A DNA stretch of 64,000 nt, taken from assembly GCA_965228015.1 (NCBI GenBank), contig OZ245787.1, positions 1,588,023 through 1,652,022 of the forward strand. The letters run 5' to 3'. Below the pieces are notes generated by a model, which saw only the letters and a program-made list of their open reading frames with translations, did no database searches and had not been told where the DNA came from. Shown here piece after piece: positions 9,855-54,922 of the stretch. This stretch comes from Peptococcia bacterium (GTDB lineage Bacteria > Bacillota > Peptococcia > Peptococcales > SKKY01). Each line of letters begins with the position of its first letter. Positions within the stretch are counted from its first letter, which is position 1. The translations under genes and the position numbers were made by a program.

Positions 9855-10805
9855 TTATAAATGGAAATGCCCTGCAGCTTCTGGTTGATAAACAATTTCT
9901 TTAATGTAAATTTCTGTTTTTTCTCCAGTGGGAAGTTCCCATTCAACAGTATCTCCCTCTTTGTAACCAATCAATGCAGTTCCAATAGGTGAGAATATTG
10001 AAAGTTTGTTTTCTTCCCAGTCTGAGTCTTGGGGGAATACTAAAAAAATTTCCATTTCTTCTCCATCAAGACTAATCGGTGCTTTGGAATTCATGGTGAT
10101 TACGTTTTGAGGAAGCTCTTCTGGTGGCACAACGATGGCCTTATCCAGTTCCTTTTCCAGTTTTTTAAATAATTTTTCTTCCTTCGCTGATGTGAAAATC
10201 TCTTCATCAATAATTCTTTTAAGTCTTTCTTTGTCAAATTCTATAATATAAATTGCATCTGACACGGTGGTACCCTCCTTAATGGAAAGCAAATAATCTT
10301 CCATTGTAATTGAAAAGCTGTAAATATCGTTTTTCAAACCTTCTGACTTAAAACCTGCATTAATAAAAGCTTTAACAGATCGCAAATTTCTTTTGTCAAT
10401 TTCTGCAATAAGTCTTTCAGAACGTATTTCAAAAAAAGTAACCTTCATACTTTCTCTGATAGTACAGGGACCCAGCTTTTGTCCCCAATTATTTCGGTCA
10501 CCAATGGCAATTACAATCTCTGATTCATTTCCCTTTGTTGCCAGGCGGACAAATCCTACAGGTTCATTCTTTTTGTTATAAGCCATAAAAAAACGGCCGT
10601 TTTGGTTAAAAAAGTGAGTCAGAACTGGAAGCTGTACCCGGTTAATAACATTTTCTATATCCTCAGAGACATCTTGATCATCTGTCAGATATTTTGCAAC
10701 CTCTTCATCTTGCAGCCACTTTATTAATGTTAGCGCATTTTCCCTGGTTATTTCAGGGTATAAAAATATAGGTTCTACAATAAATGTTGGGGTGGTAAAA
10801 ACCAT
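9855..10805 (-). CDS. GNAT N-acetyltransferase fused to a GreA/GreB-C-terminal (Rnk-like) domain; the 5' end is supplied by the ISL3 terminus
   Basis: N-terminal GNAT fold (..VGFVRLATKGNESEIVIAIGDRNNWGQKLG..), C-terminal SIFSPIGTALIGYKEGDTVEWELPTGEKTEIYIKEI resembling the GreA C-domain. Codons upstream of 10771 lie inside the IS. Confidence 0.6.
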   Translation of the reverse strand: MVFTTPTFIVEPIFLYPEITRENALTLIKWLQDEEVAKYLTDDQDVSEDIENVINRVQLPVLTHFFNQNGRFFMAYNKKNEPVGFVRLATKGNESEIVIAIGDRNNWGQKLGPCTIRESMKVTFFEIRSERLIAEIDKRNLRSVKAFINAGFKSEGLKNDIYSFSITMEDYLLSIKEGTTVSDAIYIIEFDKERLKRIIDEEIFTSAKEEKLFKKLEKELDKAIVVPPEELPQNVITMNSKAPISLDGEEMEIFLVFPQDSDWEENKLSIFSPIGTALIGYKEGDTVEWELPTGEKTEIYIKEIVYQPEAAGHFHL

Positions 10806-12157
10806 TCTGACATTTATTTGCGAAAAAATACAGAGCATTGGGTAAATCCATATTAGAGAACACCCACTGTAATCTAAGGAGGAATTTACTTATGCTCTAT
10901 AATAACTATTATATTAAAAAATTAATTGGTTTTAAAGGGATAATTTTAGAACAATTAGAAACTTCTTCTGATTCAATGTCCTTTTCTTTTTCTCTGGAGA
11001 TTAAAACTCACAATTACCCCAAATGCCATCAACAAACCAATAAAGTTCATGATTACAGAATTCAAATGATAAAAGATATTTCCATCTCAGGGAAGAAAAC
11101 CTACCTTTACTATAAAAAAAGAAGGTACGTTTGTAATCACTGCAATAAAAAATTCTACGAAAAAAATGATTTTCTCCCCCGCTATCAAAGAATGACCAGC
11201 AGGCTGATAAAATACATAATTACTCGAATGAAAAATGTTTACTCTGTATCTGATATTGCCAAAGAGAATAATATTTCACCATCAACGGCTCTCAGGCTTT
11301 TTAGATTCATAAACTATTCCCTAACAAAATTGCCCGAAGTAATCTCTATTGATGAATTTAAAGGTAATGCCGGGGGCAAAAAGTACCAGTGCATATTAAC
11401 TGATCCCTAAAACAAGAAGGTACTTGATATTCTTCACGGAAGAGAACAACACATTTTATCGGACTATTTCAGGAAATTCAATGACAGGGATAAAGTAAAA
11501 TACTTCATTATGGATATGTGGCAACCTTACAAGGATATTGCTGAAACATATTTTAAAAATGCAACTATCATTATCGATAAATTCCATTTCATTAGGCAGG
11601 TCACTTGGGCATTTGAAAGAATTAGGAAAGATGAGCAAAAGAAATTTGCCAAGGAAAGGCGAAGATATTTCAAAAGAAGTCGCTCCCTTCTCTTAAAAAG
11701 AATGAAGTATTTAACTCCTGAAGAAATTGACCAGGTAAACGTTATGCTTGCTACTTCTGAGAAACTGCAAAAAGCTTATATGTTAAAAGAAAAATTTTAT
11801 AACTTTGTTGACAGCAGTGATTTAGAAAGTGCAAAAAAGAATTTGAAAGCCTGGTATATGTTTGTTATGTCCTGTGAGTTTGAAGAATTCGATAAATGCT
11901 CCAGAACCATTTTCAACTGGCAGAAATATATTCTTAATTCATTTACTTGTACTTATACTAACGGATATACAGAAGGAGTTAACAACAAAATTAAGGTTTT
12001 AAAAAGAAATGCTTATGGTGTAAGAAATTTTTGGAGATTCAAAAACAGAATAATGCACGTAATGAACTAAAAACAATTTAAAAAAGTACCGCATTTTTCA
12101 ATGCGGTACTCATGGAATCTAATCTAATTGGGTTGCTCCAACATTTGACAAAGAACC
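10771..12157 (+). mobile_element. ISL3-family insertion sequence, copy 1 (1387 bp)
   Basis: Terminal inverted repeats GGTTCTACAATAAATGTTGGGG / CCAACATTTGACAAAGAACC; near-identical inverted copy at 60260-61646. Confidence 0.85.
10838..12070 (+). pseudogene. ISL3 transposase with in-frame TAA
   Basis: ORFs 10838-11410 and 11510-12070 are in the same frame. The codon at 11408-11410 is TAA where copy 2 has CAA (..ILTDPQNKKVLDIL..). Confidence 0.8.
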
Positions 12158-14173: not shown

Positions 14174-15031
14174 TCAGTTTATATTTCGTGCTTCAAATGG
14201 AGTCAGCCCTCCATTGTATGAATGAGGTCGAATGTGGTTGTACCACACATAAACATATTTATTGATAGTTTCATCTAATTGTAGGTCGGTTTCAAATTTT
14301 TGGTAGTAAATAAGCTCTGACTTAAGTGATTTATAAAATCTCTCCATTGGAGCGTTATCATATGGGCAACCTGTTTTACTCATGCTTTGCCTTATTCCTT
14401 GGCTTTTGCAGTACTCTACGAAAGCCCATGAGGTGAACTGTACCCCCTGATCTGAATGTAAGACTAACCCTTCATCTGGACTCTCTCTTTCGAGAGCTTT
14501 AGACAAGGCTTCTATTGCCAGATCTGAGTTGATTCATTTTGAGTTAACCGTTGCTATTGCTTCCCTTTTTGCTAAATCTATAATAGTACAATTATAACGC
14601 ATTTTACCGTTTGTTAATCTTATATAGGTGAAATCAGTACACCATACTTTATTTCTTTCTGTGACAGAGAAATTTTGATTAAGAATATTGGGAAATACTT
14701 TGTTCTTTTCACCTTTTACATACTTGGGCCTTTTTCTTACAGTGATTGCATGCAGGTTTAATTCCTTGTTCATATACTTATGTGTTGTTGTCTTACTAAT
14801 AAATATATTTTGCCTTGCAAGAAAAGCGACCATCCACCTATGGCCGATAATGCGTCCATTATTGTAATAAATACTTTTTATGTTTTCTTGAACTTTAGCC
14901 TTTCCTTCACGATACGTGGATTTTCTGTTCTTTAAGTAATTGTAGTACACATTCGGAGAGAGGTTGAACTTGCGGCATAACCAGCGCAATCCAAACTCAA
15001 GTTTATAGGCATCAATGAACCGATATACCAC
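14174..15031 (-). pseudogene. IS3-family transposase OrfB (DDE/rve), in-frame TGA and extra frame defect
   Basis: ..TDFTYIRL.., HSDQGVQFTS, CPYDNAPMERFYKSLK motifs; in-frame TGA between 14506 and 14534 (..VNSK*INSDLAIEAL..); the -1 frame after the slippery site closes after ..AAAFFAKEID. Confidence 0.75.
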
Positions 15032-15314
15032 TAATCGATTTCCTTTGCGAAGAATGCCGCTGCTTTTTTAGGAAGTCATTTTCCTTTTGAAGTTCCATAA
15101 GCTTCTTGTTAAGCGCTCTATATTCCTCTGGTGATATTGCGTTTTCTTTATTTTGTGGTTTTGTGTAATGACATTCTTCGCTGTATTTTTTTATCCATCC
15201 GGACATTGTTGATTTTGATACACCGTAGGTTGCAAAAAGATCACCAAGGCTTTTGCCTTTTAGATATTCACGTACAACCTCCTTCTTGAATTCTAAATCG
15301 TAATGTTTGCTCAT
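15012..15314 (-). CDS. IS3-family transposase OrfA (HTH)
   Basis: 100 aa; MSKHYDLEFKKEVVREYLKGKSLGDLFATYGVSKSTMSGWIKKY; A6G slippery motif near its 3' end. Confidence 0.75.
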   Translation of the reverse strand: MSKHYDLEFKKEVVREYLKGKSLGDLFATYGVSKSTMSGWIKKYSEECHYTKPQNKENAISPEEYRALNKKLMELQKENDFLKKQRHSSQRKSISGISVH

Positions 15315-18159: not shown

Positions 18160-20049
18160 TTATGGTTTGATAATTGCATTAAAACGGCAGGCATCATAGC
18201 AGGCACCACAGCCAATACAAAGTTCGGGATCAATAACATGTTTTTCCTTAGGTTTTCCTGAAATTGCGTCAACAGGGCAAACCCTGGCACAGGCAGTACA
18301 GCCGATACATTTTTCTTCGATTATTGAATATTTTAATAGTGCCTTACATCTTCCTGCAGGGCAGGTTTTATCAACAATATGAGTAACATACTCGTCGTAA
18401 AAATACTCCAAGGTGCTGAGAACTGGATTTGGAGCCGATTGCCCCAGCCCGCAAAGGGAGCTGTCTTTAATCATTCTGCCAAGAGTCCGAAGGCTTTCAA
18501 TATCCTCCATTTTCCCTTCCCCTTCAGAAATTCTAACAAGGATTTCGTGCATTCGTTTTGTTCCCAGACGGCAGGGTGTACATTTGCCGCAGGATTCATC
18601 TTGAGTAAATTCAAGATAAAATTTGGCAATGTCTACCATACAGTCATCTTCTTCCAGGACAATCATTCCCCCAGAGCCCATCATTGACCCAATGGCGAGA
18701 AGGCTTTCGTAGTCGATGGGGGTATCCAGATCCCGGGCAGTGATAACACCTCCGGAAGGTCCACCAGTTTGCACGGCTTTGAATTCCTTATCGTTAGCAA
18801 TGCCGCCGCCGATCTCGTAAATAATTTCCCGGAGAGTTGTGCCCATAGGAACTTCAATTAAGCCGATATTATTAATTTTTCCTGCAAGGGAGAAAACTTT
18901 CGTTCCTTTGGATTTTTCTGTACCCATTGAGCAAAACCACTGAGGTCCGTTAAGAATTATTGGTGGTATATTGGCAAAGGTTTCTACGTTGTTAACAGAA
19001 GTAGGTTTTTTCTTATACCCTTCAATGGAGGGGAAAGGAGGTTTTTTAGTTGATTCTCCCCGTTTTCCTTCCACAGAGTGGATAAGGGCAGTTTCCTCAC
19101 CGCAAACGAAGGCTCCCGCACCAAGCTTTATTTTAATGTCAAAGTTGAATCTGCTGTCAAAAATATCTTTTCCCAAAAAGCCCAGGTCGTAGGCTTCTTT
19201 GATAGCGATTTCTAGACGCTGGATTGCTAGTGGATACTCAGCACGGATATAAATAATTCCCTGAGATGCTCCGGTAGCGTAGCCGGCAATGGCCATGGCT
19301 TCCAGAACTGTGTGAGGATCTCCTTCGAGAATCGAGCGATCCATAAAAGCTCCTGGATCTCCCTCATCTGCATTACAGAAAATATATTTTTCATCAGAAA
19401 CCGGCTTTCTTGTTGCCTCCCACTTTAAACCAACAGGGAATCCACCGCCTCCACGACCTCGAAGGCCGCTGGCTTTCATAATTTCAATAACATCTTCAGG
19501 AATCATCGTTGTAAGAACTCTTCCCAGAGCCTCGTAACCCCTGTAGGCGATATACTCGAGAATGTTTTCCGGGTCAATATTTCCGCAATTTCGCAAGGCA
19601 ATCCGGTGCTGCTTTTTATAGAAGCTGATATCATGCTGTTTAGGCAGATGCTCATGAGTTTTTGGATCTTCGTAGAGAAGGCGCTTAACAATTTTATTAT
19701 TGACGATGTGTTCCTCGATCAGTTCTTCAATATCTTCCATTTTAACTTTTACATAGAAAACATCTTCAGGGTGAATTTTTATAATAGGGCCCTGGCTGCA
19801 AAAGCCGAAGCAACCTGTTTGAGAAACTAGAATTTCTTTATCCAGACCTCTTTTTTTGATTCCTTCACGGCAGGCTTCAATCATTTTTAAACTTTCAGCA
19901 GAAACACAGCCTGTGCCGCCGCAGAAAAGAATGTGACGTTTAAATTCATCCGTGGATTCGGGCACATCTTCCTCACGAAGCTTAATTTTTATAAACTCTT
20001 TGCTCTTTAATTCCCAGATCTCTTCAAGATTTTGAATTTTATTTTTCAT
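18160..20049 (-). CDS. hydB: NuoF-like flavoprotein subunit of bifurcating hydrogenase (HydB/HndC type)
   Basis: 629 aa; GLRGRGGGGFPVGLKW FMN/NADH motif, SCGKCTPCR N3 cluster, C-terminal 2x CxxCxxCxxxCP ferredoxin domain. Confidence 0.9.
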   Translation of the reverse strand: MKNKIQNLEEIWELKSKEFIKIKLREEDVPESTDEFKRHILFCGGTGCVSAESLKMIEACREGIKKRGLDKEILVSQTGCFGFCSQGPIIKIHPEDVFYVKVKMEDIEELIEEHIVNNKIVKRLLYEDPKTHEHLPKQHDISFYKKQHRIALRNCGNIDPENILEYIAYRGYEALGRVLTTMIPEDVIEIMKASGLRGRGGGGFPVGLKWEATRKPVSDEKYIFCNADEGDPGAFMDRSILEGDPHTVLEAMAIAGYATGASQGIIYIRAEYPLAIQRLEIAIKEAYDLGFLGKDIFDSRFNFDIKIKLGAGAFVCGEETALIHSVEGKRGESTKKPPFPSIEGYKKKPTSVNNVETFANIPPIILNGPQWFCSMGTEKSKGTKVFSLAGKINNIGLIEVPMGTTLREIIYEIGGGIANDKEFKAVQTGGPSGGVITARDLDTPIDYESLLAIGSMMGSGGMIVLEEDDCMVDIAKFYLEFTQDESCGKCTPCRLGTKRMHEILVRISEGEGKMEDIESLRTLGRMIKDSSLCGLGQSAPNPVLSTLEYFYDEYVTHIVDKTCPAGRCKALLKYSIIEEKCIGCTACARVCPVDAISGKPKEKHVIDPELCIGCGACYDACRFNAIIKP

Positions 20050-20052
20050 AGA

Positions 20053-20559
20053 TTAAGCTTTCTCCTTTTCCCGGTTTTTGTAGCTTTCAATAATGCCAGG
20101 AACATCTTCAGCATGAATGTGGCCGAAGGCTTTATCGTTGACCATAACTACAGGAGCCAGGCCGCAGGCCCCAATACAGCGGACGTTAGTTAGGGTGAAA
20201 AGATTGTCAGGGGTAGTTTCCCCGGTTTTGATGCCCAGAATCCGGTGAAACTCATTCATAACTTTGTCTGCCCCTTTTACGAAGCAGGCAGTACCCATGC
20301 AGATATTTATTGTATATTTCCCCCGTTTTTCTTCATTAAAGTAGGAGTAGAAGGTAACAACTCCGTAAATGTGAGCCGCAGGAAGATCCAGTTTCCGGGC
20401 TATGTAAAGCTGCAGTTCGCTGGGGAGGTAGCCAAAAAGATCCTGAGCCTTATGAAGGACCGCAATAACCTCATCCTTTTTATTCGGTAACGAATCAATA
20501 AAAGCATCAAGAACAGGGAGAAGCTCCTCCGCATTTTCCAATTTATAAACATCTTCCAT
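20053..20559 (-). CDS. hydC: NuoE-like 2Fe-2S subunit (HydC/HndA type)
   Basis: ORF 20053-20604, probable start MEDVYKLENAEE at 20559; CMGTAC..CIGACGLAPV thioredoxin-like 2Fe-2S motif. Confidence 0.85.
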   Translation of the reverse strand: MEDVYKLENAEELLPVLDAFIDSLPNKKDEVIAVLHKAQDLFGYLPSELQLYIARKLDLPAAHIYGVVTFYSYFNEEKRGKYTINICMGTACFVKGADKVMNEFHRILGIKTGETTPDNLFTLTNVRCIGACGLAPVVMVNDKAFGHIHAEDVPGIIESYKNREKEKA

Positions 20560-20677
20560 AAAATACCATCCTTCCCTTTTCAGAATAAAATATAAATTAA
20601 CCACATTCCTTAAAGTTTACCCCAAAAGGTGGTAAAATAAAAAGAAAATAACCCGCTGATTTGGGGACGTTTTGGTG

Positions 20678-21973
20678 TGATCCCCTAAAAGGGTACAGAT
20701 TAGGGACAGTAGATTTCAATAAATTAATTACATGAAAAAATCTTTTTATAGAATCTTGGAGGGACACCTCCAAGATTCTATTGTGTCCTATCATTTATAT
20801 AATGATTCATGTACTCCTCAGTTATTTCTTTTATTTCTTCAATACTTTTGAGTCTTTTTTTTGTGAAGATTAATACTTTCTGTTTTGTAATGGCTAAAAA
20901 AACTTTCCGCTTTAGCATTGTTCCAACAGTTTCCCCTTCTAGACATGCTTTGAATAGCTCCTAGGGTATTTAAATATCCTGAATATTCTTTGCTAGTGTA
21001 CTGGACTCCCTGGTCACTGTGAATAATAGTATCATTAAGGTCAAACTTTTTTGATAACTTTTCAATCGTTTTCACCGTTAGAGTAGTGTCTGGATTTTTG
21101 CTATACTCCCAGCTAACTGGTTCATTATTAAAAAGATCTAATGCGACACACAAGTATAATTTTGAATTGCGATAAGGGATGCAAGCAATATCTGTAGCAA
21201 TCTTTTTTCCAGGTTTGTCTGTTTTAAAATCTCTTCTCAGGATATTCTCTTTAATCTGCTTATCATCATGTATTTTATTCTTCTTCCTTCTGATAATTGA
21301 TCCTAGGCTGTTCTCTCTCATGATTCTTTGTATCTTTTTATGATTTACAATAGTTTTAAAAACAAATCGAAGTTCATTTTGAATCTGTCTGTATCCATAA
21401 ACTTTTTTGATTTATTATATATCTGAATAATTATTTTCTTAATTGGGACTTCTTTTTTTATTGGTTTGTTTCTGAAGTTGTAATAGGACTTTCTTTTTAC
21501 TTCAGCAATTTCACAAAGAAGTTTTACTGAATATTTAAATTCCAATACAAAGATAGCTTTATATTTTAATTCTCTGGCTTTTATTTTTTAGGTATAAAGG
21601 GTTGTAAATGTTCTAATTATTCATAATATTCAATTCTGGCTCTTAATCTCTCATTTTCTTTTTCATATTCGATTTCTCTAGCTGTTCTTGGTTGATGTTC
21701 TATTTTATCTGGCTGGCTAGTTATTTTATCAGGATCTTTTTTAGAATCTTTAGAAATAAGTCCCTTTTCTTTTAATTGTTTTTCCCAATTAAGTATATAG
21801 TTTTTTGAAGATAAATTGTACTTTGCAGTAATCTTTCTTACCCCTAGGTTGCTTTCGTAATAGTCTTTAATTACAGAGAGTTTAAATTCATTAGAATAGT
21901 TCTTTTTTATTAAAATCAGCCCCCAAAATTAGTATATCTTACTGTCCCTAATTTGTGTAACTTTTGAGGGTCA
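20678..21973 (-). mobile_element. Degenerate relative of the dominant IS3-family element (copy F)
   Basis: Ends TGATCCCCTAAAAGGGTACA.. and ..TGAGGGTCA align with the IRs of the 1.3-kb IS. The transposase frame is broken many times (fragments 20839-21321, 21345-21545) and the start codon is lost. Confidence 0.75.
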
Positions 21974-22038
21974 GACTATTTCTAAAATCAGCGCGTTATC
22001 CACAGGCAGAGAAATTTTAAGGATATGAGGATATAGAA

Positions 22039-22421: not shown

Positions 22422-22795
22422 TGAAGATTATTTTAGTTGCCCTTGGCGGGAGTTTGGGTAGTTTAACCCGATTCAGGTTAGGGAAATTTTTTCTGGAAGA
22501 GGTTGGAATTCAATACCGATAGGAACCTTTTTTGTAAATATAACAGGAGCTTTTTTCTTGGCTTATTATCAGGTTTAGGTACAATAGGTACAGGTACAAG
22601 CGGGGACATATATATTTATAGATTTTTAGGAGATGGCTTTTTTGGAGCCTATACAACGTTTTCTACATTTATGTATGAAGGGTTCAATTTCTTTCAGGGA
22701 AAAAACAGTTAAACGCACTTGCTTACATAGGTTCAAGTATTATTTTAGAGATAATTGGTTTCACACTAGGTTTTTGGATTTCACCCTGTGGATAA
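22421..22795 (+). pseudogene. crcB: Fluoride ion channel CrcB (second of pair), frameshifted; its 3' end runs into the palindromic repeat
   Basis: MKIILVALGGSLGSLTRFRLG.., later ..GAYTTFSTFMYEG in other frames; the stop codon lies within the TGTGGATAA box at 22787-22795. Confidence 0.6.
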
Positions 22796-22817
22796 ATTGC
22801 ACTAAATAGAACTGGTC
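22784..22817. repeat. Half copy (right arm) of the DnaA-box palindromic repeat
   Basis: CCCTGTGGATAAATTGCACTAAATAGAAC, identical to the right arm of the copy at 26571-26600; the left arm is absent. Confidence 0.6.
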
Positions 22818-24115
22818 TGACCCCCAAAAATTACACAAAATTGGGACAGTAAGATATACTAATTTTGGGGGCTGATTTTAATGACAAAGAACTATTCTAA
22901 TGAATTTAAACTCTCTGTAATTAAGGAATATTACGAAAGCAATCTTGGGGCAAGAAAGATTACTGCAAAGTACAATTTATCTTCAAAAAATCTTGTTCTT
23001 AATTGGGAAAAACAATTAAAAGAAAAAGGACTTCTTCCAACAGAAGCTAAGAAAGATCCGGATAAGATAAAAATCAGATCAGATAAAATAGATTTTCCTG
23101 AGAAAACACAAAGAGAAATTGAATACGAAAAAGAAATAGAACATCTTTATGCTAAAATTGAATACTACGAACAATTAGAGCATTTACAGCCCTTTATTTC
23201 TAAAAAAACAAAAGTCAGGGAGCTAAAGTACAGAGCTATATTTGCTTTGGAATTTAAATATACAGTAAAATTTCTTTGCGAAATTGCTGGAGTAAAAAGA
23301 AAAGCCTATTGCAATTTCAGAGACAAACCAATAAAAAAAGAAGATTCCATTGAGAAAATAATTATTCAAATATATAACAAATCAAAAGGAATTTTTGGTT
23401 ACAGAAGAATAGGAAATGAGCTAAGAAATGCGTTTAAAATAGTTGTTAATCATAAAAAGATTCAAAGAATAATGCAGGAAAACAATCTCAGATCCAGAAT
23501 CAGAAGAAAAAAGAATAGGATTCAAGATGATAAACAATTCAAAGCCAATATATTAAACAGGGATTTTAAGGCAAGTCGCCCAGGAGAAAAAATAGCCACA
23601 GATATTACCTGTATTCCTTACAGAAACTCTAAGCTATATCTGTGTGTTGCCCTAGATCTGTTTAACAATGAGCCAGTAAGCTGGGAATACAGTAAGAATC
23701 CTGACAGCAAGCTGACTGTAAAAACTATTGAAAAACTTTCAAAAAAGATAGGTATTAAGAATACTGTTATCCATAGTGATCAAAGTGTTCAATACACAAG
23801 CAAAGAATATTCCAGCTATTTAAAGTCTTTAGGAGCAGTTCAAAGTATGTCCAGAAGAGGAAATTGCTGGGATAATGCGAAGATTGAAAGTTTCTTTAGC
23901 CATTACAAAACAGAAAGTATTAATCTCTACAAGAAAAGAATCAAAAGTTTTAAAGATATAAAAGAAATTACTGAAGATTACATTAAATTTTATATAAATG
24001 ACAGGACGCATAGAAACCTTGGAGGCGTCCCTCCAAGGTTTCTATAAACAGATTTTTTCATTTAATTAATTTGGTGAAATTTACTGTCCCAGAAGTGTAC
24101 CCTTTTTGGGGGTCA
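22818..24115 (+). mobile_element. IS3-family insertion sequence, dominant type, copy A
   Basis: IRs TGACCCCCAAAAATTACAC..TGGGACAGTAA / ..TTACTGTCCCAGAAGTGTACCCTTTTTGGGGGTCA (may extend 4-5 bp as TGGTC/CACCA); one of five near-identical copies. Confidence 0.85.
22881..24047 (+). CDS. IS3-family transposase, uninterrupted single ORF (388 aa)
   Basis: N-terminal HTH (NYSNEFKLSVIKEYYESNLGARKI), rve core ..ATDITCIPY.., HSDQSVQYTS, RRGNCWDNAKIESFF. Confidence 0.85.
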   Translation: MTKNYSNEFKLSVIKEYYESNLGARKITAKYNLSSKNLVLNWEKQLKEKGLLPTEAKKDPDKIKIRSDKIDFPEKTQREIEYEKEIEHLYAKIEYYEQLEHLQPFISKKTKVRELKYRAIFALEFKYTVKFLCEIAGVKRKAYCNFRDKPIKKEDSIEKIIIQIYNKSKGIFGYRRIGNELRNAFKIVVNHKKIQRIMQENNLRSRIRRKKNRIQDDKQFKANILNRDFKASRPGEKIATDITCIPYRNSKLYLCVALDLFNNEPVSWEYSKNPDSKLTVKTIEKLSKKIGIKNTVIHSDQSVQYTSKEYSSYLKSLGAVQSMSRRGNCWDNAKIESFFSHYKTESINLYKKRIKSFKDIKEITEDYIKFYINDRTHRNLGGVPPRFL

Positions 24116-24200
24116 CACCAAAGCGTCCCCTGCGGAGCTGATTTGCCTCTTTGTTTTTAATTTGTTTTATGTTATTATTTTTTAGATTGAAGGTGATATT

Positions 24201-26531: not shown

Positions 26532-26600
26532 GGGGAAGCTTCCATTTGGTGCAATTTATCCACAGCCTCAACCCTGTGGATAAATTGCACTAAATAGAAC
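26532..26600. repeat. DnaA-box palindromic repeat (full copy) abutting IS copy B
   Basis: GGGGAAGCTTCCATTTGGTGCAATTTATCCACAG cctcaac CCTGTGGATAAATTGCACTAAAT; perfect TTATCCACA at 26556-26564 and TGTGGATAA at 26575-26583. Confidence 0.7.
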
Positions 26601-26605
26601 TGGTC

Positions 26606-27902
26606 TGACCCCCAAAAATTACACAAAATTGGGACAGTAAGATATACTAATTTTGGGGGCTGATTTTAATGACAAAGAACTATTCTAATGAATTTAAACT
26701 CTCTGTAATTAAGGAATATTACGAAAGCAATCTTGGGGCAAGAAAGATTACTGCAAAGTACAATTTATCTTCAAAAAATCTTGTTCTTAATTGGGAAAAA
26801 CAATTAAAAGAAAAAGGACTTCTTCCAACAGAAGCTAAGAAAGATCCGGATAAGATAAAAATCAGATCAGATAAAATAGATTTTCCTGAGAAAACACAAA
26901 GAGAAATTGAATACGAAAAAGAAATAGAACATCTTTATGCTAAAATTGAATACTACGAACAATTAGAGCATTTACAGCCCTTTATTTCTAAAAAAACAAA
27001 AGTCAGGGAGCTAAAGTACAGAGCTATATTTGCTTTGGAATTTAAATATACAGTAAAATTTTTTTGCGAAATTGCTGGAGTAAAAAGAAAAGCCTATTGC
27101 AATTTCAGAGACAAACCAATAAAAAAAGAAGATCCCATTGAGAAAATAATTATTCAAATATATAACAAATCAAAAGGAATTTTTGGTTACAGAAGAATAG
27201 GAAATGAGCTAAGAAATGCATTTAAAATAGTTGTTAATCATAAAAAGATTCAAAGAATAATGCAGGAAAACAATCTCAGATCCAGAATCAGAAGAAAAAA
27301 GAATAGGATTCAAGATGATAAACAATTCAAAGCCAATATATTAAACAGGGATTTTAAGGCAAGTCGCCCAGGAGAAAAAATAGCCACAGATATTACCTGT
27401 ATTCCTTACAGAAACTCTAAGCTATATCTGTGTGTTGCCCTAGATCTGTTTAACAATAAACCGGTAAGCTGGGAATACAGTAAGAATCCTGACAGCAAGC
27501 TGACTGTAAAAACTATTGAAAAACTTTCAAAAAGATAGATATTAAGAATACTGTTATCCATAGCGATCAAGATGTTCAATACACAAGCAAAGAATATTCC
27601 AGCTATTTAAAGTCTTTAGGAGCAGTTCAAAGTATGTCCAGAAGAGGAAATTGCTGGGATAATGCGAAGATTGAAAGTTTCTTTAGCCATTACAAAACAG
27701 AAAGTATTAATCTCTACAAAAAAAGAATCAAAAGTTTTAAAGATATAAAAGAAATTACTGAAGATTACATTAAATTTTATATTAATGACAGGACGCAAAG
27801 AAGCCTTGGAGGTGTCCCTCCAAGGCTTCTATAAACAGATTTTTTCATTTAATTAATTTGGTGAAATTTACTGTCCCAGAAGTGTACCCTTTTTGGGGGT
27901 CA
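26606..27902 (+). mobile_element. IS3-family insertion sequence, dominant type, copy B
   Basis: Same IRs as copy A; splits prs from pth. Confidence 0.85.
26669..27834 (+). pseudogene. IS3-family transposase, frameshifted
   Basis: ORFs 26669-27538 and 27634-27834; the A run at 27529-27533 has 5 A where other copies have 6 (..KLSKKIDIK..). Confidence 0.8.
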
Positions 27903-27939
27903 CACCAAAGCGTCCCCTAAAAAATGAAAGGATCTTTTT

Positions 27940-35926: not shown

Positions 35927-36000
35927 GGGGATGTTTCTATTTTGATCGCGTTTTCCACAGGATAGCCCCTGTGGAAAACGCGATCAAAATAGAACTGGTC
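35927..36000. repeat. DnaA-box palindromic repeat (full copy) abutting IS copy C
   Basis: GGGGATGTTTCTATTTTGATCGCGTTTTCCACAG gatagcc CCTGTGGAAAACGCGATCAAAATAGAAC; boxes TTTTCCACA at 35951-35959 and TGTGGAAAA at 35970-35978. Confidence 0.7.
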
Positions 36001-37297
36001 TGACCCCCAAAAATTACACAAAATTGGGACAGTAAGATATACTAATCTTGGGGGCTGATTTTAATGACAAAGAACTATTCCGATGAATTTAAACTCTCTG
36101 TAATTAAGGAATATTACGAAAGCAATCTTGGGGTAAGAAAGATTACTGCAAAGTACAATTTATCTTCAAAAAATCTTGTTCTTAATTGGGAAAAACAATT
36201 AAAAGAAAAAGGACTTCTTCCAACAGAAGCTAAGAAAGATCCGGATAAGATAAAAATCAGATCAAATAAAATAGATTTTCCTGAGAAAACACAAAGAGAA
36301 ATTGAATACGAAAAAGAAATAGAACATCTTTATGCTAAAATTGAATACTACGAACAATTAGAGCATTTACAGCCCTTTATTTCTAAAAAAACAAAAGTCA
36401 GGGAGCTAAAGTACAGAGCTATATTTGCTTTGGAATTTAAATATACAGTAAAATTTCTTTGCGAAATTGCTGGAGTAAAAAGAAAAGCCTATTGCAATTT
36501 CAGAGACAAACCAATAAAAAAAGAAGATTCCATTGAGAAAATAATTATTCAAATATATAACAAATCAAAAGGAATTTTTGGTTACAGAAGAATAGGAAAT
36601 GAGCTAAGAAATGCGTTTAAAATAGTTGTTAATCATAAAAAGATTCAAAGAATAATGCAGGAAAACAATCTCAGATCCAGAATCAGAAGAAAAAAGAATA
36701 GGATTCAAGATGATAAACAATTCAAAGCCAATATATTAAACAGGGATTTTAAGGCAAGTCGCCCAGGAGAAAAAATAGCCACAGATATTACCTGTATTCC
36801 TTACAGAAGCTCTAAGCTATATCTGTGTGTTGCCCTAGATCTGTTTAACAATGAGCCAGTAAGCTGGGAATACAGTAAGAATCCTGACAGCAAGCTGACT
36901 GTAAAAACTATTGAAAAACTTTCAAAAAAGATAGATATTAAGAATACTGTTATCCATAGCGATCAAGGTGTTCAATACACAAGCAAAGAATATTCCAGCT
37001 ATTTAAAGTCTTTAGGAGCAGTTCAAAGTATGTCCAGAAGAGGAAATTGCTGGAATAATGCGAAGATTGAAAGTTTCTTTAGCCATTACAAAACAGAAAG
37101 TATTAATCTCTACAAGAAAAGAATCAAAAGTTTTAAAGATATAAAAGAAATTACTGAAGATTACATTAAATTTTATATAAATGACAGGACGCAAAGAAAC
37201 CTTGGAGGTGTCCCTCCAAGGTTCTATAAACAGATTTTTTCATTTAATTAATTTGGTGAAATTTACTGTCCCAGAAGTGTACCCTTTTTGGGGGTCA
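36001..37297 (+). mobile_element. IS3-family insertion sequence, dominant type, copy C
   Basis: Same IRs; lies between hup and the S4-domain gene. Confidence 0.85.
36064..37251 (+). CDS. IS3-family transposase, uninterrupted ORF (395 aa)
   Basis: Full-length with HSDQGVQYTS and RRGNCWNNAKIESFF. A 1-nt difference near the 3' end lengthens the tail relative to copy A. Confidence 0.85.
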   Translation: MTKNYSDEFKLSVIKEYYESNLGVRKITAKYNLSSKNLVLNWEKQLKEKGLLPTEAKKDPDKIKIRSNKIDFPEKTQREIEYEKEIEHLYAKIEYYEQLEHLQPFISKKTKVRELKYRAIFALEFKYTVKFLCEIAGVKRKAYCNFRDKPIKKEDSIEKIIIQIYNKSKGIFGYRRIGNELRNAFKIVVNHKKIQRIMQENNLRSRIRRKKNRIQDDKQFKANILNRDFKASRPGEKIATDITCIPYRSSKLYLCVALDLFNNEPVSWEYSKNPDSKLTVKTIEKLSKKIDIKNTVIHSDQGVQYTSKEYSSYLKSLGAVQSMSRRGNCWNNAKIESFFSHYKTESINLYKKRIKSFKDIKEITEDYIKFYINDRTQRNLGGVPPRFYKQIFSFN

Positions 37298-37329
37298 CAC
37301 CAAAGCGTCCCCTGAAGGAGGTGGGCGGC

Positions 37330-40707: not shown

Positions 40708-42417
40708 ATGTACAAAGCAGTAGAAAAAATTATCCGCAGAAAATGGGACACGTCCCTTGGAATGAAAAGGGGAAACGGTTGCGAACACGGAAACATCCCC
40801 AGCGCAAGTGATGCAAGCGGGGACACTTCTAGAGATGTGAAAATTTCCAGAGTTGAGGGAAGTTCCCCCCCACCCGTTATCATTTTAGGCCTTTCAGGTG
40901 GTCCCGATTCCATGGCCCTTTTCCATATATTAAATAAATTAAGGGAAAAATATTCCTTTAAACTTGTTGCGGCTCACGTGAACCACATGTTCCGGGGAGA
41001 AGAGGCGGATGAGGAAGAAGCCTATCTGCAAAAAATGGTTAAAGAACTTGTCTCTCAGTCAGATGCCGGCTTGACCATTGAAACTCTTCGAGTGGATGTA
41101 AAGAAAATCGCTCAGGAAAGAAAACTTTCTAATCAGGATGCCGGACATCAGGTGCGGAAAGAATTTTTTCAGATGCTTAGTAAAAAATATGATGCAGATT
41201 ATGTTTTTCTCGCTCATCATCAAGATGACCGGGTTGAGAGTTTTTTTCTTCATCTTCTTCATGGCGCCGGAGTTCAGGGCTTAACGGCTCTTTCGAAAGT
41301 GGAGAATTACGGTGAAGATGGAAGCGGGTTGAAAGTAATCAGGCCATTAATAGGATTTTCCAAGGATGAGATTCTTAAATTTTGCCAGGAGCAGGGGATT
41401 TTCTATTTCAAAGATCCCAGCAATGAAAAGGCTTTGTACAATAGGAATAAAATTCGCTTGGAACTGATACCCCAGCTGGAGCAAGAATATAATCCGAAGA
41501 TTAAGGATGTAATTCTTCGCAGTGTGGAGATTCTTGAAGACGAAGATGCTTTTTTGAATGATGTAGTTCAGGAAAAGTACCAAGAGCTTGTTCGGGAGAA
41601 TTTTTCAGAGGAAGTGGCGCTGCTACTTTTAGATAAGAAAGAATTCCAAAAATTTCATAAAGGAATCCAACAGCGCCTTGTGATAAAGATTTTAAATAAA
41701 TTAGCTCCAGGAGAAGTCGGATATAACTTTGAAAAGATTGAAAAAATCCTGGAGCTTTTAAATGAAGAAAAAGGGCAGCGAAGGTACAAACTTTCCCACA
41801 ACTCCTGGCTGGAAGTGGGCTACGAGGAAGGAAAGTTTGTGCTGTATCCTCAACGGGAATCAGCTGAAAATGTCGAGGATGCAGGAAGCCATTTCGATTT
41901 TGACGTGGACATCGAAATGGACATCCACGTCGATGTCCATTTCGATAAAATCGAAATGGAAGGCCCCCTCACCTTTCAGGCCGGGGGCCAAAGCTTCACC
42001 TTCGCTGCTGTCGCAGCTGGGACGCTTCCATTCTCAGCGGGTTTTTCACATCCCCAACCTTGTGGAAAACCCGCGGAAAAAAGAAGCGTCCCAGCTTCCG
42101 CGCTGATTTTTGCTCCGGGGAAGCTTACCCTCCGCACCCGTCGGGATGGGGATGTCATTAAACCCGCCGGGGGGAAGACTAAAAAGCTGAAGAAATTTTT
42201 TATGGAGAAAAAAATTCTTCAAAATGAGCGGGACAAGATCATCCTCCTGGCCTCCGGCAAGGAAATCATCTGGATCCCCAACATGGTCATCTCCCAAAAC
42301 TATCTTCCGGAAAATCCTGCAGATTGTGTCTCTAATAAAAACAATCTTGAACAGAGTGGAAAAAAAATGTTAAAAGTCTTCTGGAGGGGGAAAGAGAGTT
42401 TGAAAAATAGCCCCTGA
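40708..42417 (+). CDS. tilS: tRNA(Ile)-lysidine synthetase with repeat-derived insertions
   Basis: PP-loop LSGGPDSMAL, HHQDDRVESF, C-terminal RTRRDGDVIKPAGG..KKLKKFF; about 100 aa longer than usual because of inserts at about 40745-40875 and 41880-42140. Confidence 0.85.
   Translation: MYKAVEKIIRRKWDTSLGMKRGNGCEHGNIPSASDASGDTSRDVKISRVEGSSPPPVIILGLSGGPDSMALFHILNKLREKYSFKLVAAHVNHMFRGEEADEEEAYLQKMVKELVSQSDAGLTIETLRVDVKKIAQERKLSNQDAGHQVRKEFFQMLSKKYDADYVFLAHHQDDRVESFFLHLLHGAGVQGLTALSKVENYGEDGSGLKVIRPLIGFSKDEILKFCQEQGIFYFKDPSNEKALYNRNKIRLELIPQLEQEYNPKIKDVILRSVEILEDEDAFLNDVVQEKYQELVRENFSEEVALLLLDKKEFQKFHKGIQQRLVIKILNKLAPGEVGYNFEKIEKILELLNEEKGQRRYKLSHNSWLEVGYEEGKFVLYPQRESAENVEDAGSHFDFDVDIEMDIHVDVHFDKIEMEGPLTFQAGGQSFTFAAVAAGTLPFSAGFSHPQPCGKPAEKRSVPASALIFAPGKLTLRTRRDGDVIKPAGGKTKKLKKFFMEKKILQNERDKIILLASGKEIIWIPNMVISQNYLPENPADCVSNKNNLEQSGKKMLKVFWRGKESLKNSP
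42019..42092. repeat. IS-free copy of the DnaA-box palindromic repeat, inside the tilS ORF
   Basis: GGGACGCTTCC attctca GCGGGTTTTTCACA tccccaac CTTGTGGAAAACCCGC ggaaaaaa GAAGCGTCCC; outer 10-bp and inner stems pair. Confidence 0.7.
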
Positions 42418-44498: not shown

Positions 44499-44948
44499 AT
44501 GGAAAAAACTTTTCTAATGATTAAGCCAGACGGGGTACAAAGAGGTCTGGTTGGAGAAATCGTTAAAAGATTCGAAGCAAAAGGATTCAAAATGTTAGGA
44601 ATGAAATTAATTCAGGTTTCAGAAGAGCTTGCTGGAAAACACTATGCAGAGCATGTTGGCAAACCATTCTACCCAGGATTGATTGAATACATTACATCAG
44701 GGCCAGTTTTTGCAATGTGTTTCGCTGGAAAAAATGTAGTAGCTGAAGCAAGAAAAATGATGGGAAGCACTAACCCAGCAGATGCAGCACCAGGAACAAT
44801 CAGAGGAGACTTCGGCCAAGATATCGGCAGAAACATCATCCACGGATCAGACAGCGTAGAGAGCGCAGAAAAAGAATTAGCAGTATACTTCGATCCATCA
44901 GAAATTTTAGACTACGACTACCTGCCAGAAAAATGGTTGTTCGAGTAA
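44499..44948 (+). CDS. ndk: Nucleoside diphosphate kinase
   Basis: [21 protein letters not shown].., NIIHGSDS active-site His. Confidence 0.9.
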
Positions 44949-44979
44949 AAAAGACCGCTGATTAGGGGACAGTTTGGTG

Positions 44980-46277
44980 TGACCCCCAAAAAGGGTACAC
45001 TTCTGGGACAGTAAATTTCACCAAATTAATTAAATGAAAAAATCTGTTTATAGAAGCCTTGGAGGGACACCTCCAAGGCTTCTTTGCGTCCTGTCATTAA
45101 TATAAAATTTAATGTAATCTTCAGTAATTTCTTTTATATCTTTAAAACTTTTGATTCTTTTCTTGTAGAGATTAATACTTTCTGTTTTGTAATGGCTAAA
45201 GAAACTTTCAATCTTCGCATTATCCCAGCAATTTCCTCTTCTGGACATACTTTAAACTGCTCCTAAAGACTTTAAATAGCTGGAATATTCTTTGCTTGTG
45301 TATTGAACACCTTGATCACTATGGATAACAGTATTCTTAATATCTATCTTTTTTGAAAGTTTTTCAATAGTTTTTACAGTCAGCTTGCTGTCAGGATTCT
45401 TACTGTATTCCCAGCTTACCGGTTTATTGTTAAACAGATCTAGGGCAACACACAGATATAGCTTAGAGTTTCTGTAAGGAATACAGGTAATATCTGTGGC
45501 TATTTTTTCTCCTGGGCGACTTGCCTTAAAATCCCTGTTTAATATATTGGCTTTGAATTGTTTATCATCTTGAATCCTATTCTTTTTTCTTCTGATTCTG
45601 GATCTGAGATTGTTTTCCTGCATTATTCTTTGAATCTTTTTATGATTAACAACTATTTTAAACGCATTTCTTAGCTCATTTCCTATTCTTCTGTAACCAA
45701 AAATTCCTTTTGATTTGTTATATATTTGAATAATTATTTTCTCAATGGAATCTTCTTTTTTTATTGGTTTGTCTCTGAAATTGCAATAGGCTTTTCTTTT
45801 TACTCCAGCAATTTCGCAAAGAAATTTTACTGTATATTTAAATTCCAAAGCAAATATAGCTCTGTACTTTAGCTCCCTGACTTTTGTTTTTTTAGAAATA
45901 AAGGGCTGTAAATGCTCTAATTGTTCGTAGTATTCAATTTTAGCATAAAGATGTTCTATTTCTTTTTCGTATTCAATTTCTCTTTGTGTTTTCTCAGGAA
46001 AATCTATTTTATCTGATCTGATTTTTATCTTATCCGGATCTTTCTTAGCTTCTGTTGGAAGAAGTCCTTTTTCTTTTAATTGTTTTTCCCAATTAAGAAC
46101 AAGATTTTTTGAAGATAAATTGTACTTTGCAGCAATCTTTCTTACCCCAAGATTGCTTTCGTAATATTCCTTAATTACAGAGAGTTTAAATTCATCGGAA
46201 TAGTTCTTTGTCATTAAAATCAGCCCCCAAGATTAGTATATCTTACTGTCCCAATTTTGTGTAATTTTTGGGGGTCA
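44980..46277 (-). mobile_element. IS3-family insertion sequence, dominant type, copy D (inverted)
   Basis: Same IRs; same transposase lesions as copy E (shared nonsense codon and NKPVSW variant); palindromic repeat on its left-end (inner) side. Confidence 0.85.
45048..46214 (-). pseudogene. IS3-family transposase with nonsense codon
   Basis: ..SLGAV*SMSRRGNCWDNA: TAA replaces the CAA of other copies; ORFs 45252-46214 and 45048-45248. Confidence 0.8.
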
Positions 46278-46349
46278 GACCAGTTCTATTTAGTGCGGGC
46301 TATCCACAAGAGTTACCCTGTGGATAGCCCGCTGATTTTGGAAGCGTCC
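46278..46349. repeat. DnaA-box palindromic repeat (mirror image of 53461-53531), with a 9-bp duplication at its outer end
   Basis: GTGCGGGCTATCCACAAGAGTTACCCTGTGGATAGCCCGCTGATTTTGGAAGCGTCC; boxes at 46300-46308 and 46319-46327. GAAGCGTCC (46341-46349) is repeated at 49551-49559. Confidence 0.7.
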
Positions 46350-46511: not shown

Positions 46512-47288
46512 ATGTATTCCTACGAAGAAAAAATTAAAGCTGTAAAATTATTAATTAAATATGACAAATGTTATGCACAAGTAATGCGGGAGTTAGGATA
46601 CCTAGATAGAAAATCCCTAACGGCGTGGTACAAACAATATTTAAGTAATGGTGACTTAATTAAAGAATGTGAAAGAAAAGCAAAATTTTCTGAAGAAGAA
46701 AAATACAGAGCTGTTAATCATTATTTAGAACACGGAAAATGTGTACGACGCACTACAAGAATTCTTGGATATCCAAGCAGACCTACTCTTGATAAATGGA
46801 TACTAGAATTGGTGCCTGAACAAAAGAAATATTGTCGCTCAGGTAACGCATTGATAAAATATACTCGTGAACAAAAAGAAGCAGCAGTTATAGCTTTATG
46901 CTCACGGGAAAAATCGGCCAGAGAAGTAGCGAATGAAATTGGCATTACCTGTGAGAGGCTTTATAGTTGGAAAAATCAGCTTCTAAAAAAAGGGTGGAAT
47001 AGGACAATGCCAAAAAAAGATAAAGTATCCCCAAAAGTGAAAACTAATATTAGTGATGATCAAGCAAAATTATTATTAAAAGAAAAAGATGTTCTTTTAA
47101 AACAAGTGGAAGAATTAAAAAAGGATATATATCATCTTCAGTTAAAAAGAGATATTTTGGAAAAAGCAGCAGAAATAATAAAAAAAGATAAGGGCATTAG
47201 CATAAAAACACTTTCTAATAGTGAAAAAGCCATGGCGATTAATGCCCTAAGAGAGAATTTTTTTAAAAGATTTATTGATAATTCTTAA
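46512..47288 (+). CDS. IS3-family transposase, N-terminal part (HTH and leucine zipper)
   Basis: 258 aa; two HTH-like segments, coiled coil ..LLKQVEELKKDIYHLQLKRDILEKAAEIIKK. Confidence 0.75.
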   Translation: MYSYEEKIKAVKLLIKYDKCYAQVMRELGYLDRKSLTAWYKQYLSNGDLIKECERKAKFSEEEKYRAVNHYLEHGKCVRRTTRILGYPSRPTLDKWILELVPEQKKYCRSGNALIKYTREQKEAAVIALCSREKSAREVANEIGITCERLYSWKNQLLKKGWNRTMPKKDKVSPKVKTNISDDQAKLLLKEKDVLLKQVEELKKDIYHLQLKRDILEKAAEIIKKDKGISIKTLSNSEKAMAINALRENFFKRFIDNS

Positions 47289-53460: not shown

Positions 53461-53531
53461 GACGCTTCCAAAATCAGCGGGCTATCCACAGGGTAACTCT
53501 TGTGGATAGCCCGCACTAAATAGAACTGGTC
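53461..53531. repeat. DnaA-box palindromic repeat abutting IS copy E
   Basis: GACGCTTCCAAAATCAGCGGGCTATCCACAG ggtaactc TTGTGGATAGCCCGCACTAAATAGAAC; boxes at 53482-53490 and 53501-53509. Confidence 0.7.
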
Positions 53532-54829: not shown

Positions 54830-54922
54830 CACCAAAGCGTCCCCTCCGCTTTGCAAAAAATTTACATTAATTAATTTGCCTTGTATAGTCTTAATTGATA
54901 AAATATCCGAGTAAATTTAATT

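Follow-up and report, generated by a model that had tools for sequence, protein, structure and literature searches.

In a 64,000-nt stretch of contig OZ245787.1 from a Peptococcia bacterium (positions 1,588,023 to 1,652,022; referred to as the window), each copy of a 1.3-kb insertion sequence (IS) of the IS3 family was found to lie inside one arm of a palindrome whose apex carries two inverted 9-mers of the DnaA-box type. The palindrome is an independent repeat family that is older than the IS insertions, and its reading as a target of a site-specific IS, similar to repetitive extragenic palindromic (REP) sequences, is strongly supported. The best explanation, which we consider probable, is that an old, vertically transmitted family of hairpin repeats in an uncultured low-GC lineage of Clostridia, presumably derived from elements of RAYT-like Y1 tyrosine transposases (TIRYT), is targeted by a subgroup of IS3 elements.

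The window has a GC content of 36.7% and contains six copies of the IS, designated A to F. These copies, the palindromes or single arms that adjoin them, the outer blocks on their far side, and one further palindrome are located as follows.

20663-20672, minus strand: outer block of copy A, AAACGTCCCC
20673-21978, minus strand: IS copy A, 79% identical to the other copies, degenerate, of an older or a different lineage
21979-22010, minus strand: right arm of copy A, CCTGTGGATAACGCGCTGATTTTAGAAA
22783-22812, plus strand: right arm of copy B (left arm missing), with a perfect TGTGGATAA at 22787-22795
22813-24120, plus strand: IS copy B, with a 388-aa transposase open reading frame (ORF) at 22881-24047
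24121-24130, plus strand: outer block of copy B, AAGCGTCCCC
26532-26600, plus strand: palindrome of copy C, comprising the left arm, the loop, and the part of the right arm that precedes the IS
26601-27907, plus strand: IS copy C, transposase ORF broken (289 aa plus remainder)
27908-27917, plus strand: right-arm outer block of copy C, interrupted by the IS, AAGCGTCCCC
35927-35995, plus strand: palindrome of copy D, arms 27/27 complementary, both boxes TTTTCCACA
35996-37302, plus strand: IS copy D, with an intact single-ORF transposase of 395 aa at 36064-37251 (294 bits with NF033516)
37303-37312, plus strand: right-arm outer block of copy D, interrupted by the IS, AAGCGTCCCC
42015-42096, plus strand: complete palindrome free of an IS, lying in the reading frame of tilS between the parts for the PP-loop and TilS_C domains
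44965-44974, minus strand: outer block of copy E, AACTGTCCCC
44975-46282, minus strand: IS copy E, 100% identical to copy F, with a perfect AAC/AAC duplication
46283-46349, minus strand: palindrome of copy E, with the same sequence as that of copy F and boxes CTATCCACA / TGTGGATAG
53460-53526, plus strand: palindrome of copy F, identical to that of copy E
53527-54834, plus strand: IS copy F, identical in sequence to copy E
54835-54844, plus strand: outer block of copy F, AAGCGTCCCC

The element was assigned to the IS3 family by its ends and its transposase. The ends, TGGTCTGACCCCCAAAAA and TTTTTGGGGGTCACACCA, were complementary at 17 of 18 positions and had the 5'-TG...CA-3' form of that family. 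The transposase (up to 395 aa; Pfam domains HTH_Tnp_1, HTH_21, rve, and rve_3) scored 294 bits with the NCBIfam IS3 model NF033516, the cut-off of which is 160. In copies B and D and in relatives with 53% identity, it is encoded by one continuous ORF of 388-396 aa and not by the orfA/orfB arrangement with -1 frameshift, which is typical of IS3 elements but not universal. Copies B-F differed at 0-19 positions. Close relatives of the transposase were present only in one 1,898,514-bp contig (a cluster of 27 members) and in short reads-derived contigs; the next relatives beyond this cluster were 53% identical.

All six copies occupied the same position in the same orientation within one arm, between ...TAGAA and (A/G)CGTCCCC. 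To the left of every copy the sequence read ...CTGTGGA(t/a)A-N8-11-(T/A)AAATAGAA(C/A) and to the right AA(G/A/C)(C/T)GTCCCC, and the inverted repeats of the IS terminated, at TGGTC.../...CACACCA, within the palindrome arm. Copies C, D, E, and F had the full left arm, GGGGA(A/T/C)G(C/T)TTC..., followed by the loop and the right arm; only the right arm was present for copies A and B. Rechecking bore out the coordinates, sequences, and 9-mer positions of the original prediction. Its description of a near-constant 3' flank was accurate as to AAGCGTCCCC in four copies (B, C, D, and F), but the deviating flanks that it had placed beside D and F belong to A (AAACGTCCCC) and E (AACTGTCCCC).

Within the window the motifs were far above the expectation from shuffled sequence: CCACAG-N4-12-YTGTGG gave 6 matches versus 0.03 expected, AAGCGTCCCC with at most one mismatch 12 versus 1.5, and TTATCCACA with at most one mismatch 34 versus 17.5. 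Folding z-scores of the hairpins ranged from -7 to -15. The palindrome inside tilS, which was absent from the earlier list of copies, had 36-nt arms with 86% complementarity and a folding z-score (DNA) of -10. An apparent half-copy in prmC at 51321-51352 was discarded as ordinary PrmC coding sequence, most likely a chance match.

Relatives were searched with a fixed-spacing pattern derived from the arms (individual loci carry L numbers below). Fourteen complete IS-free palindromes were detected in three metagenome-assembled genomes (MAGs), i.e. 'Clostridia bacterium INTA.AUR.031', 'uncultured Eubacteriales SRP274231_co1_216', and a 'Sphingobacteriia INTA.AUR.034' contig that is probably mis-binned, and none of these loci contained the 1.3-kb IS. 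Four further IS-free full copies occurred in metagenome contigs. In L150, a locus of 41% GC covering the ctsR-clpC-radA region, six solo arms and one full palindrome were present in 20 kb. Altogether, the related genomes held at least 20 IS-free copies or solo arms. The consensus of the palindrome was GGGGACGCTTCCATTTGGCTCACTTTATCCACAGG, 6-10 bases, and CCTGTGGATAAAGTGAGCCAAATGGAAGCGTCCCC. No arm was found in the viral contigs searched, and a match in a Trueperaceae sequence (L004) from the first scan proved not to be a member of the family.

Several palindromes were located at orthologous sites. The spacer between the HU and S4 genes carries copy D with its IS in the window and intact palindromes in L003 (1364-1442) and L005 (5660-5737), with the same right flank in all three; L005 is syntenic with 35.9-42.4 kb of the window. 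The prs-pth spacer holds copy C with its IS in the window and an intact IS-free palindrome in L008 (5684-5760). A palindrome between hisZ and a DUF192 gene was common to L013 and L011. The tilS palindrome was found at the same in-frame place in the TilS gene of L005 (1097-1174), IS-free in both genomes, the two TilS proteins being 58% identical. With palindromes at orthologous positions in different genomes, the repeats are old and vertically inherited. Comparison of empty with occupied sites placed the IS between ...(A/G)GAA and (A/G)CGTCCCC of one arm, in agreement with the earlier proposal that it sits inside the right arm. Fixed position and orientation in a dispersed palindrome of which empty copies exist, the hallmark of REP-targeting ISs, were thus observed. 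When genomes were compared, outer and apex blocks proved near-invariant and the intervening 10-13 bases genome-specific, a pattern that looks like concerted evolution.

Some of the genes and leaders concerned showed further features. The tilS palindrome (tilS, 40708-42417) is translated as ...GTLPFSAGFSHPQPCGKPAEKRSVP... and lies within a GC-rich patch of ~165 nt (41960-42125) with further arm-like pieces, GCGCTGATTTTT and GGGGAAGCTT. At 40740-40870, in the 5' part of the gene, ~40 extra codons that are missing from the relative's TilS are rich in degenerate motif copies (GGGACACGTCCC, GGAAACATCCCC, GGGGACACTTCT, and GGGAAGTTCCCCC); this stretch looks like a second, decayed in-frame element. 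In prmC (50714-51715), a hairpin with 17-bp arms of other sequence (AACTCTCATCCGGAATC / GAGTCCGGATGAGAGTT) is in frame at 51359-51398, directly before the NPPY motif, and adds ~20 residues. In L150, the region 19677-20095 has a full palindrome that separates a T-box leader (105 bits with Rfam) from the beginning of the gene downstream, inside a regulated 5' untranslated region, and metK is bracketed by two solo arms.

The same target position is used by a distant relative of the IS. This element, P0394, has a transposase with 53% identity and resides in a host of ~31% GC. Ten contigs were examined, which represent few distinct insertion sites (two kinds of left flank and three kinds of right flank) from several samples. 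In 10 of 10 the junctions read ...AAAAAGAAC|TAGTCTGACCCCC...GGGGGTCACTTCA|AACCGTCCCC..., with GAAC directly before TAGTCTGACCCCC at the left junction. The uninterrupted target, GGTGCAAAAAGAACCGTCCCCGCTGCAC, is held by L157 and reveals a clean 3-bp AAC duplication for P0394. Five contigs (L156-L160) had a common left flank in which a Y1_Tnp gene ends with its 3' part (the gene was called in L156, L158, and L160), which places the insertion in the 3' end-repeat of that gene. P0394 uses targets without a DnaA box. An IS50-like, DnaA-dependent transposition signal, as had also been suggested for the boxes, is not supported, since it is the target and not the IS that carries the boxes and since P0394 has box-free targets.

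Clean 3-bp duplications were seen for copy A (flanked by AAA/AAA), copy E (AAC), and the related IS (AAC), and the left end of copy A, TAGTCTGACCC, is the same as the left end of this distant relative. The subgroup is characterized by a single-ORF transposase and the ends T(G/A)GTCTGACCCCC...GGGGGTCAC. Judged from the sequences, it targets the motif GAAN^CGTCCCC and would insert in a single orientation into the outer block at GAA(N)^CGTCCCC, with duplication of 3 bp. Position, orientation, and pre-existence of the target were observed; from these we infer recognition of the motif by the IS.

The use of one position by two diverged IS lineages of the window and by the 53%-identical IS of another host, together with IS-free copies and orthologous empty sites, strongly upholds the proposal of a REP-like palindrome as target. 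The opposing idea that the hairpin is a subterminal part of the IS, always travelling with it, has a next to negligible probability. It would fit with the hairpin abutting all six IS copies, with the identical palindromes of E and F, and with the identical right arms of B and C, but the inverted repeats of the IS stop inside the arm, and copies without an IS are present both in the window and in relatives lacking the IS. An always-linked structure is refuted by the IS-free and orthologous copies, and the hairpin is independent of the IS, as originally claimed. Spread from one insertion, in which the IS and its flanking arm were copied by homologous recombination or gene conversion and not by site-specific transposition, is improbable. 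E and F, which are inverted and 7 kb apart (44962-46349 and 53460-54845), show no difference over the 1308 nt of the IS or in the palindrome but have different right flanks; the left flank ...TAAATAGAAC is common to B, C, E, and F; and the variable sites among B-F form mosaic haplotypes. The E/F identity with unlike right flanks and the mosaic of B-F indicate that gene conversion has probably taken place among the IS copies. As the source of the copies, however, such spread is opposed by a right-flank homology of merely about 10 nt and by the exact same position, with clean 3-bp duplications, of copy A (79%) and of the 53%-identical IS in another host. In the window, the IS has struck at least four different pre-existing palindromes, and the copies were then probably homogenised by gene conversion. 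We infer that, in B, C, D, and F, conversion tracts reaching into the homologous left flank overwrote the left-hand duplicate.

The repeats themselves are built from an arm of ~35 nt, which reads GGGGACG(C/T)TTCC, ~13 variable bases, and TTATCCACAGG. Arms were found solo or head-to-head as palindromes of 65-80 nt (about 76). The six solo arms beside one palindrome in L150 identify the arm as the unit and the palindrome as its head-to-head dimer. IS-free copies were without flanking direct repeats, and their symmetry often extended outward; the combination of terminal inverted repeats and target-site duplication that marks a transposable element of the miniature inverted-repeat type (MITE) was thus not seen. 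GTAG REP and CGTC REP (Di Nocera; 20-40-nt unit, 8-9-bp stem, unpaired tag) were rejected on size and structure: with arms of ~35 nt and a palindrome of 76 nt, the repeats have no GTAG, and CGTC lies within the paired outer block.

The outer block GGGGACG(C/T)TTC recurs in the repeats that terminate TIRYT genes of other Clostridia, and in metagenomes it is found in otherwise unrelated palindromes. When metagenomes were scanned with the two outer blocks alone, at least 117 distinct elements were obtained in loci of 27-78% GC; among the matches listed, at least 55 continued as long hairpins, and in half the symmetry extended beyond the motif. An apex TTATCCACA was present in 4 of the 117 elements listed, all four from low-GC contigs of the same family; other sub-families had TGTCCC or other blocks at the box position. 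In L023, inverted motif copies flank the gene of a 263-aa Y1_Tnp protein with a C-terminal helix-turn-helix (HTH), and one of its homologues is named 'REP element-mobilizing transposase RayT' by its source. The Y1 proteins matched E. coli TnpA-REP (4er8) with E = 0.0017, and their best NCBIfam match was REP_Tyr_transpos, below the curated cut-off. Y1_Tnp genes in L023/L135 and L145 had (G)GGGACGTTTC(C/T)... repeats on either side (GGGACGTTTCCTTTTGGTTAATCTGTCCC on both sides in L135, GGGACGTTTCTTTTTTCACA on both sides in L145). In L147 the repeat was present at the 3' end only, and in L156-L160 it was seen at the 3' end. The association held in three clades (L135, L145, and L147), and in all of these loci the terminal motif of the palindrome was shared with repeats flanking Y1 (PF01797) genes. 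The L135 repeat agreed with the arm of the lineage in 18 of 24 positions.

These features fit the TIRtron/TIRYT families, which have been described by a GGGGWSAS end motif and by repeats occurring as singles, dimers, and groups (Di Nocera et al. 2013, PMC3733652); in the classification of Quentin et al. 2018 (PMC6006769), TIRYT corresponds to subclass 2.1. The arms studied here read GGGGACGC/T, a 7/8 match to the published GGGGWSAS consensus, and many metagenome clusters contain true GGGGACAC/T units along with the motif. The repeats would be REPIN/MITE-like non-autonomous derivatives of a TIRYT-type element.

Two further observations concern the genes and the outer block of this superfamily. 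In gut Clostridia (L135-L141, L023, and L145), the TIRYT gene is single-copy and has a conserved location just upstream of radA-disA (gene order GH15, Y1, radA, disA); in L135 the 3' end-repeat codes for the last residues of the protein (...QKETS...). In the flanks of copies A and E (20645-20662 and 44945-44964) and at L060 3689-3750, the outer block is followed by AATCAGCGG(G), which complements the arm's own mid-stem, so that the motif may alternatively lie in the loop of a small local hairpin. This arrangement is common in the metagenome superfamily, e.g. aaaaat-GGGGACGTTTCT-attttt.

A number of findings weigh against the proposed origin and the repeated targeting. Searches of six-frame translations with tblastn and a hidden Markov model detected no Y1/TIRYT gene in the 64-kb window and ~150 kb of lineage loci, and there was none next to radA, its site in gut Clostridia, in the relative's ctsR-clpC-radA region; two longer arm pairs (L013 178-470 and L150 4048-4321) likewise held no Y1 gene in the ~200 nt between their arms. 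As a consequence, the link to a transposase is drawn from the terminus shared with other organisms. The outer block GGGGACGY differs from GGGGWSAS at one position (position 7, G instead of A). With regard to targeting, the duplication is imperfect in copies B, C, D, and F, where AAC at the left end faces AAG at the right, and the identity of E with F and the arm shared by B and C reduce the independent insertion events to fewer than six.

For the box census, arms in lineage DNA were chosen by the outer block only. Among 41 complete arms, a perfect TTATCCACA stood at a fixed distance in 35, and TTWTNCACA was present in all 41. Every perfect box was within an arm both in the window (4/4) and in L150 (7/7). 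The consensus box was thus above chance, and it was more conserved in the relatives than in the window. The two inverted 9-mers make up the top of the stem and represent a conserved, sub-family-specific inner block; in copy C, a perfect TTATCCACA is located at 26556-26564 and a perfect TGTGGATAA at 26575-26583. Changes in the box were usually paired in both arms, as in D (TTTTCCACA / TGTGGAAAA) and in E and F (CTATCCACA / TGTGGATAG). In the tilS copies, TGTGGATAA would create a TAA stop, and both genomes have TGTGGAAAA instead.

What the palindrome does, as distinct from where it came from, allows several answers. A role as RNA element (terminator, mRNA stabiliser, or processing site), in which the box would be incidental, is not favoured, and we regard it as quite unlikely. 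Most copies do lie just after stop codons or in operon spacers, and the hairpins are very stable. In the Eubacteriales MAG (L005, L006, L008, and L013), two arm types, ATTTGGCTCAC and ATCTGACCCAC, differ by transitions, so that the palindromes pair through G-T (in RNA, G-U) wobbles on one strand and have C-A mismatches on the other. The better-pairing strand, however, was the non-coding one in 4 of 4 co-directional cases. Moreover, copies were found between divergent, convergent, and co-directional genes and inside tilS, no T-run followed the stem, both arms were conserved as sequence and symmetrically, and an Rfam search of the window and seven related loci returned no family matching the palindrome. 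That the paired boxes are functional, be it as a scattered, mostly origin-proximal sink or regulator of host DnaA, as stem-borne boxes on extruded single strands, or as target of a DnaA-IV-like domain of TIRYT, is a tentative possibility. A working host DnaA site at the apex, with the repeats serving titration or regulation as dispersed box pairs of high affinity or presenting stem-borne boxes in extruded hairpins, would be compatible with the repeat origin and may be envisaged with similar reserve. It is favoured by the 35 perfect boxes and 41 TTWTNCACA forms among 41 arms, which make the box the family's most conserved inner block, by retention of the box across relatives whose mid-stems have fully diverged, by the confinement of all perfect boxes of the window and L150 to arms, and by the location of many copies in gene blocks (prs-pth, tilS-ftsH, the HU-S4 spacer, ctsR-clpC-radA, and rplL-rpoB) that model Firmicutes have near the origin; origin proximity was judged from the synteny of neighbouring genes, oriC being outside the window. 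It is countered by the low number of boxes, only two in each element and so unlike the situation in datA and in the box clusters of B. subtilis, by the window copies being the most degenerate (TTTTCCACA, CTATCCACA), and by the rarity of the box in the superfamily (4 of the 117 elements listed), other sub-families having different inner blocks. In addition, the box is just one part of the repeat, the other conserved block belonging to the Y1-transposase (TIRYT) superfamily.

Alternatively, the box could be the recognition site for the C-terminal DNA-binding domain of a cognate Y1 transposase, which we consider rather doubtful. The conserved terminus would then serve the catalytic domain and the inner block the HTH domain. 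Arms are indeed bipartite, with a superfamily-wide terminus and a sub-family inner block at fixed distance, and some subclass 2.1 (TIRYT) proteins have Bac_DnaA_C-like or HTH_23/28 C-terminal domains, the role of which was left open, known TIRYT end-repeats being unlike DnaA boxes (PMC6006769). Against this stand the failure to find a Y1 gene in the lineage (window plus ~150 kb of loci) and the generic HTH_23-like domain that is the only one carried by the clostridial TIRYTs examined. The TIRYT C-terminus showed no similarity to DnaA domain IV in a PDB profile search or in Pfam (E up to 10), nor did hhalign detect any with E. coli DnaA domain IV (1J1V chain; alignments of 15 and 257 sequences). 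Besides binding by host DnaA or by the HTH domain of a cognate Y1 protein, the box may also be functionless.

The targeting of the TIRYT-type palindrome by the IS can be set beside known systems. The target of IS1397-type elements is the loop of a 35-nt GTAG REP. Homing of an IS to a REP-like repeat is a known phenomenon in kind: IS1397 and ISKpn1, of the IS3 family, target enterobacterial REP/BIME, and ISPpu9/ISPpu10 target REPs in Pseudomonas putida (PMC1525189, PMC12288879). With IS1397 and ISKpn1 the present element shares family membership, the fixed place and orientation in a dispersed palindrome, and the abundance of empty repeats; the likeness is one of insertion behaviour. It differs in its clostridial host, in its target, the outer block of a ~76-nt TIRYT-type palindrome, in its single transposase ORF of 388-396 aa, and in that the same IS subgroup also strikes the end-repeat of a Y1 transposase gene. 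Novelty lies in which repeat family is targeted, in the specificity of the IS clade as a whole for an end motif of Y1 transposases, and in the presence of consensus DnaA boxes inside the repeat.

DnaA-box clusters are known from E. coli datA and from oriC-proximal sites in B. subtilis, and the 'A site' of R6K/pBR322 is a DnaA-box hairpin for ABC-primosome assembly. The palindrome resembles these in having the consensus TTATCCACA outside oriC, and the A site, too, has its box in a hairpin stem; here, however, each element has only two boxes, set within a repeat of transposon type. Compared with TIRtron/TIRYT repeats (PMC3733652, PMC6006769), the G-rich GGGGWSAS-like end, the occurrence as singles, head-to-head dimers, and clusters, the lack of target duplication, and the GGGACGYTTC-start repeats flanking Y1 genes in other Clostridia are alike. 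G instead of A at motif position 7 and the failure to find a cognate Y1 gene in the lineage loci are different, as is the inner block, a consensus DnaA box, which the literature denies for known TIRYT repeats (PMC6006769). REPIN-RAYT systems (Bertels & Rainey 2011, PMC3116915) likewise have two inverted units forming a long hairpin, vertical inheritance with orthologous sites, and a single-copy transposase gene at a conserved locus, as seen in the gut Clostridia, whereas the present repeats have no GTAG tag, arms that are not small palindromes, and modest copy numbers as far as seen. Rickettsia palindromic elements (cited in PMC3733652) are similar in that an in-frame palindrome is kept in a housekeeping gene, here tilS in two genomes; sequence family and host differ, and only one or two intragenic copies were found.

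The region is rich in other mobile DNA. A second, unrelated IS3-family element (orfA plus orfB, about 30% identical) is located at 46512-48084, a DDE_Tnp_1 fragment at 52023-52493, and another rve-type fragment at 14198-15037. The same 40-nt imperfect palindrome (AATAAATGTTGGGGTGGT.../...ACCACCCCAACATTTATT) occurs at 10779-10818 and 61599-61638, in opposite orientation and 50 kb apart, and this pair may mark the ends of another element. Among the metagenome loci, L001 and L142-L144 (ENA ERZ25074352), contigs of the sample in which this organism occurs, are fold-back chimeras with genes repeated in mirror order, probably a long-read assembly artefact.

These results add a clear example from Clostridia of IS homing to REP-like repeats and point to a whole IS3 subgroup that recognises a conserved RAYT-like (TIRYT) end motif across very different hosts. 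In one host the subgroup has entered the end-repeat of the Y1 transposase gene itself, and it thereby in effect parasitises a second system, mobile or domesticated. Palindromic repeats with the motif GGGGACGYTTC form a superfamily that is very large, poorly described, and spread over genomes of 27-78% GC. The persistence of the lineage repeats at orthologous sites, as in frame within tilS at 58% TilS identity, makes them useful for studying the survival of such elements. The sub-family with perfect DnaA boxes is a concrete substrate for the question of DnaA-like domains in Y1 transposases and offers a way to probe recruitment of host DnaA. If the box is read by a Y1 domain, this family would be the missing case for the DnaA-like domain of subclass 2.1; if the boxes are functional, a repeat family of mobile-element origin would be tied to the machinery of replication initiation.

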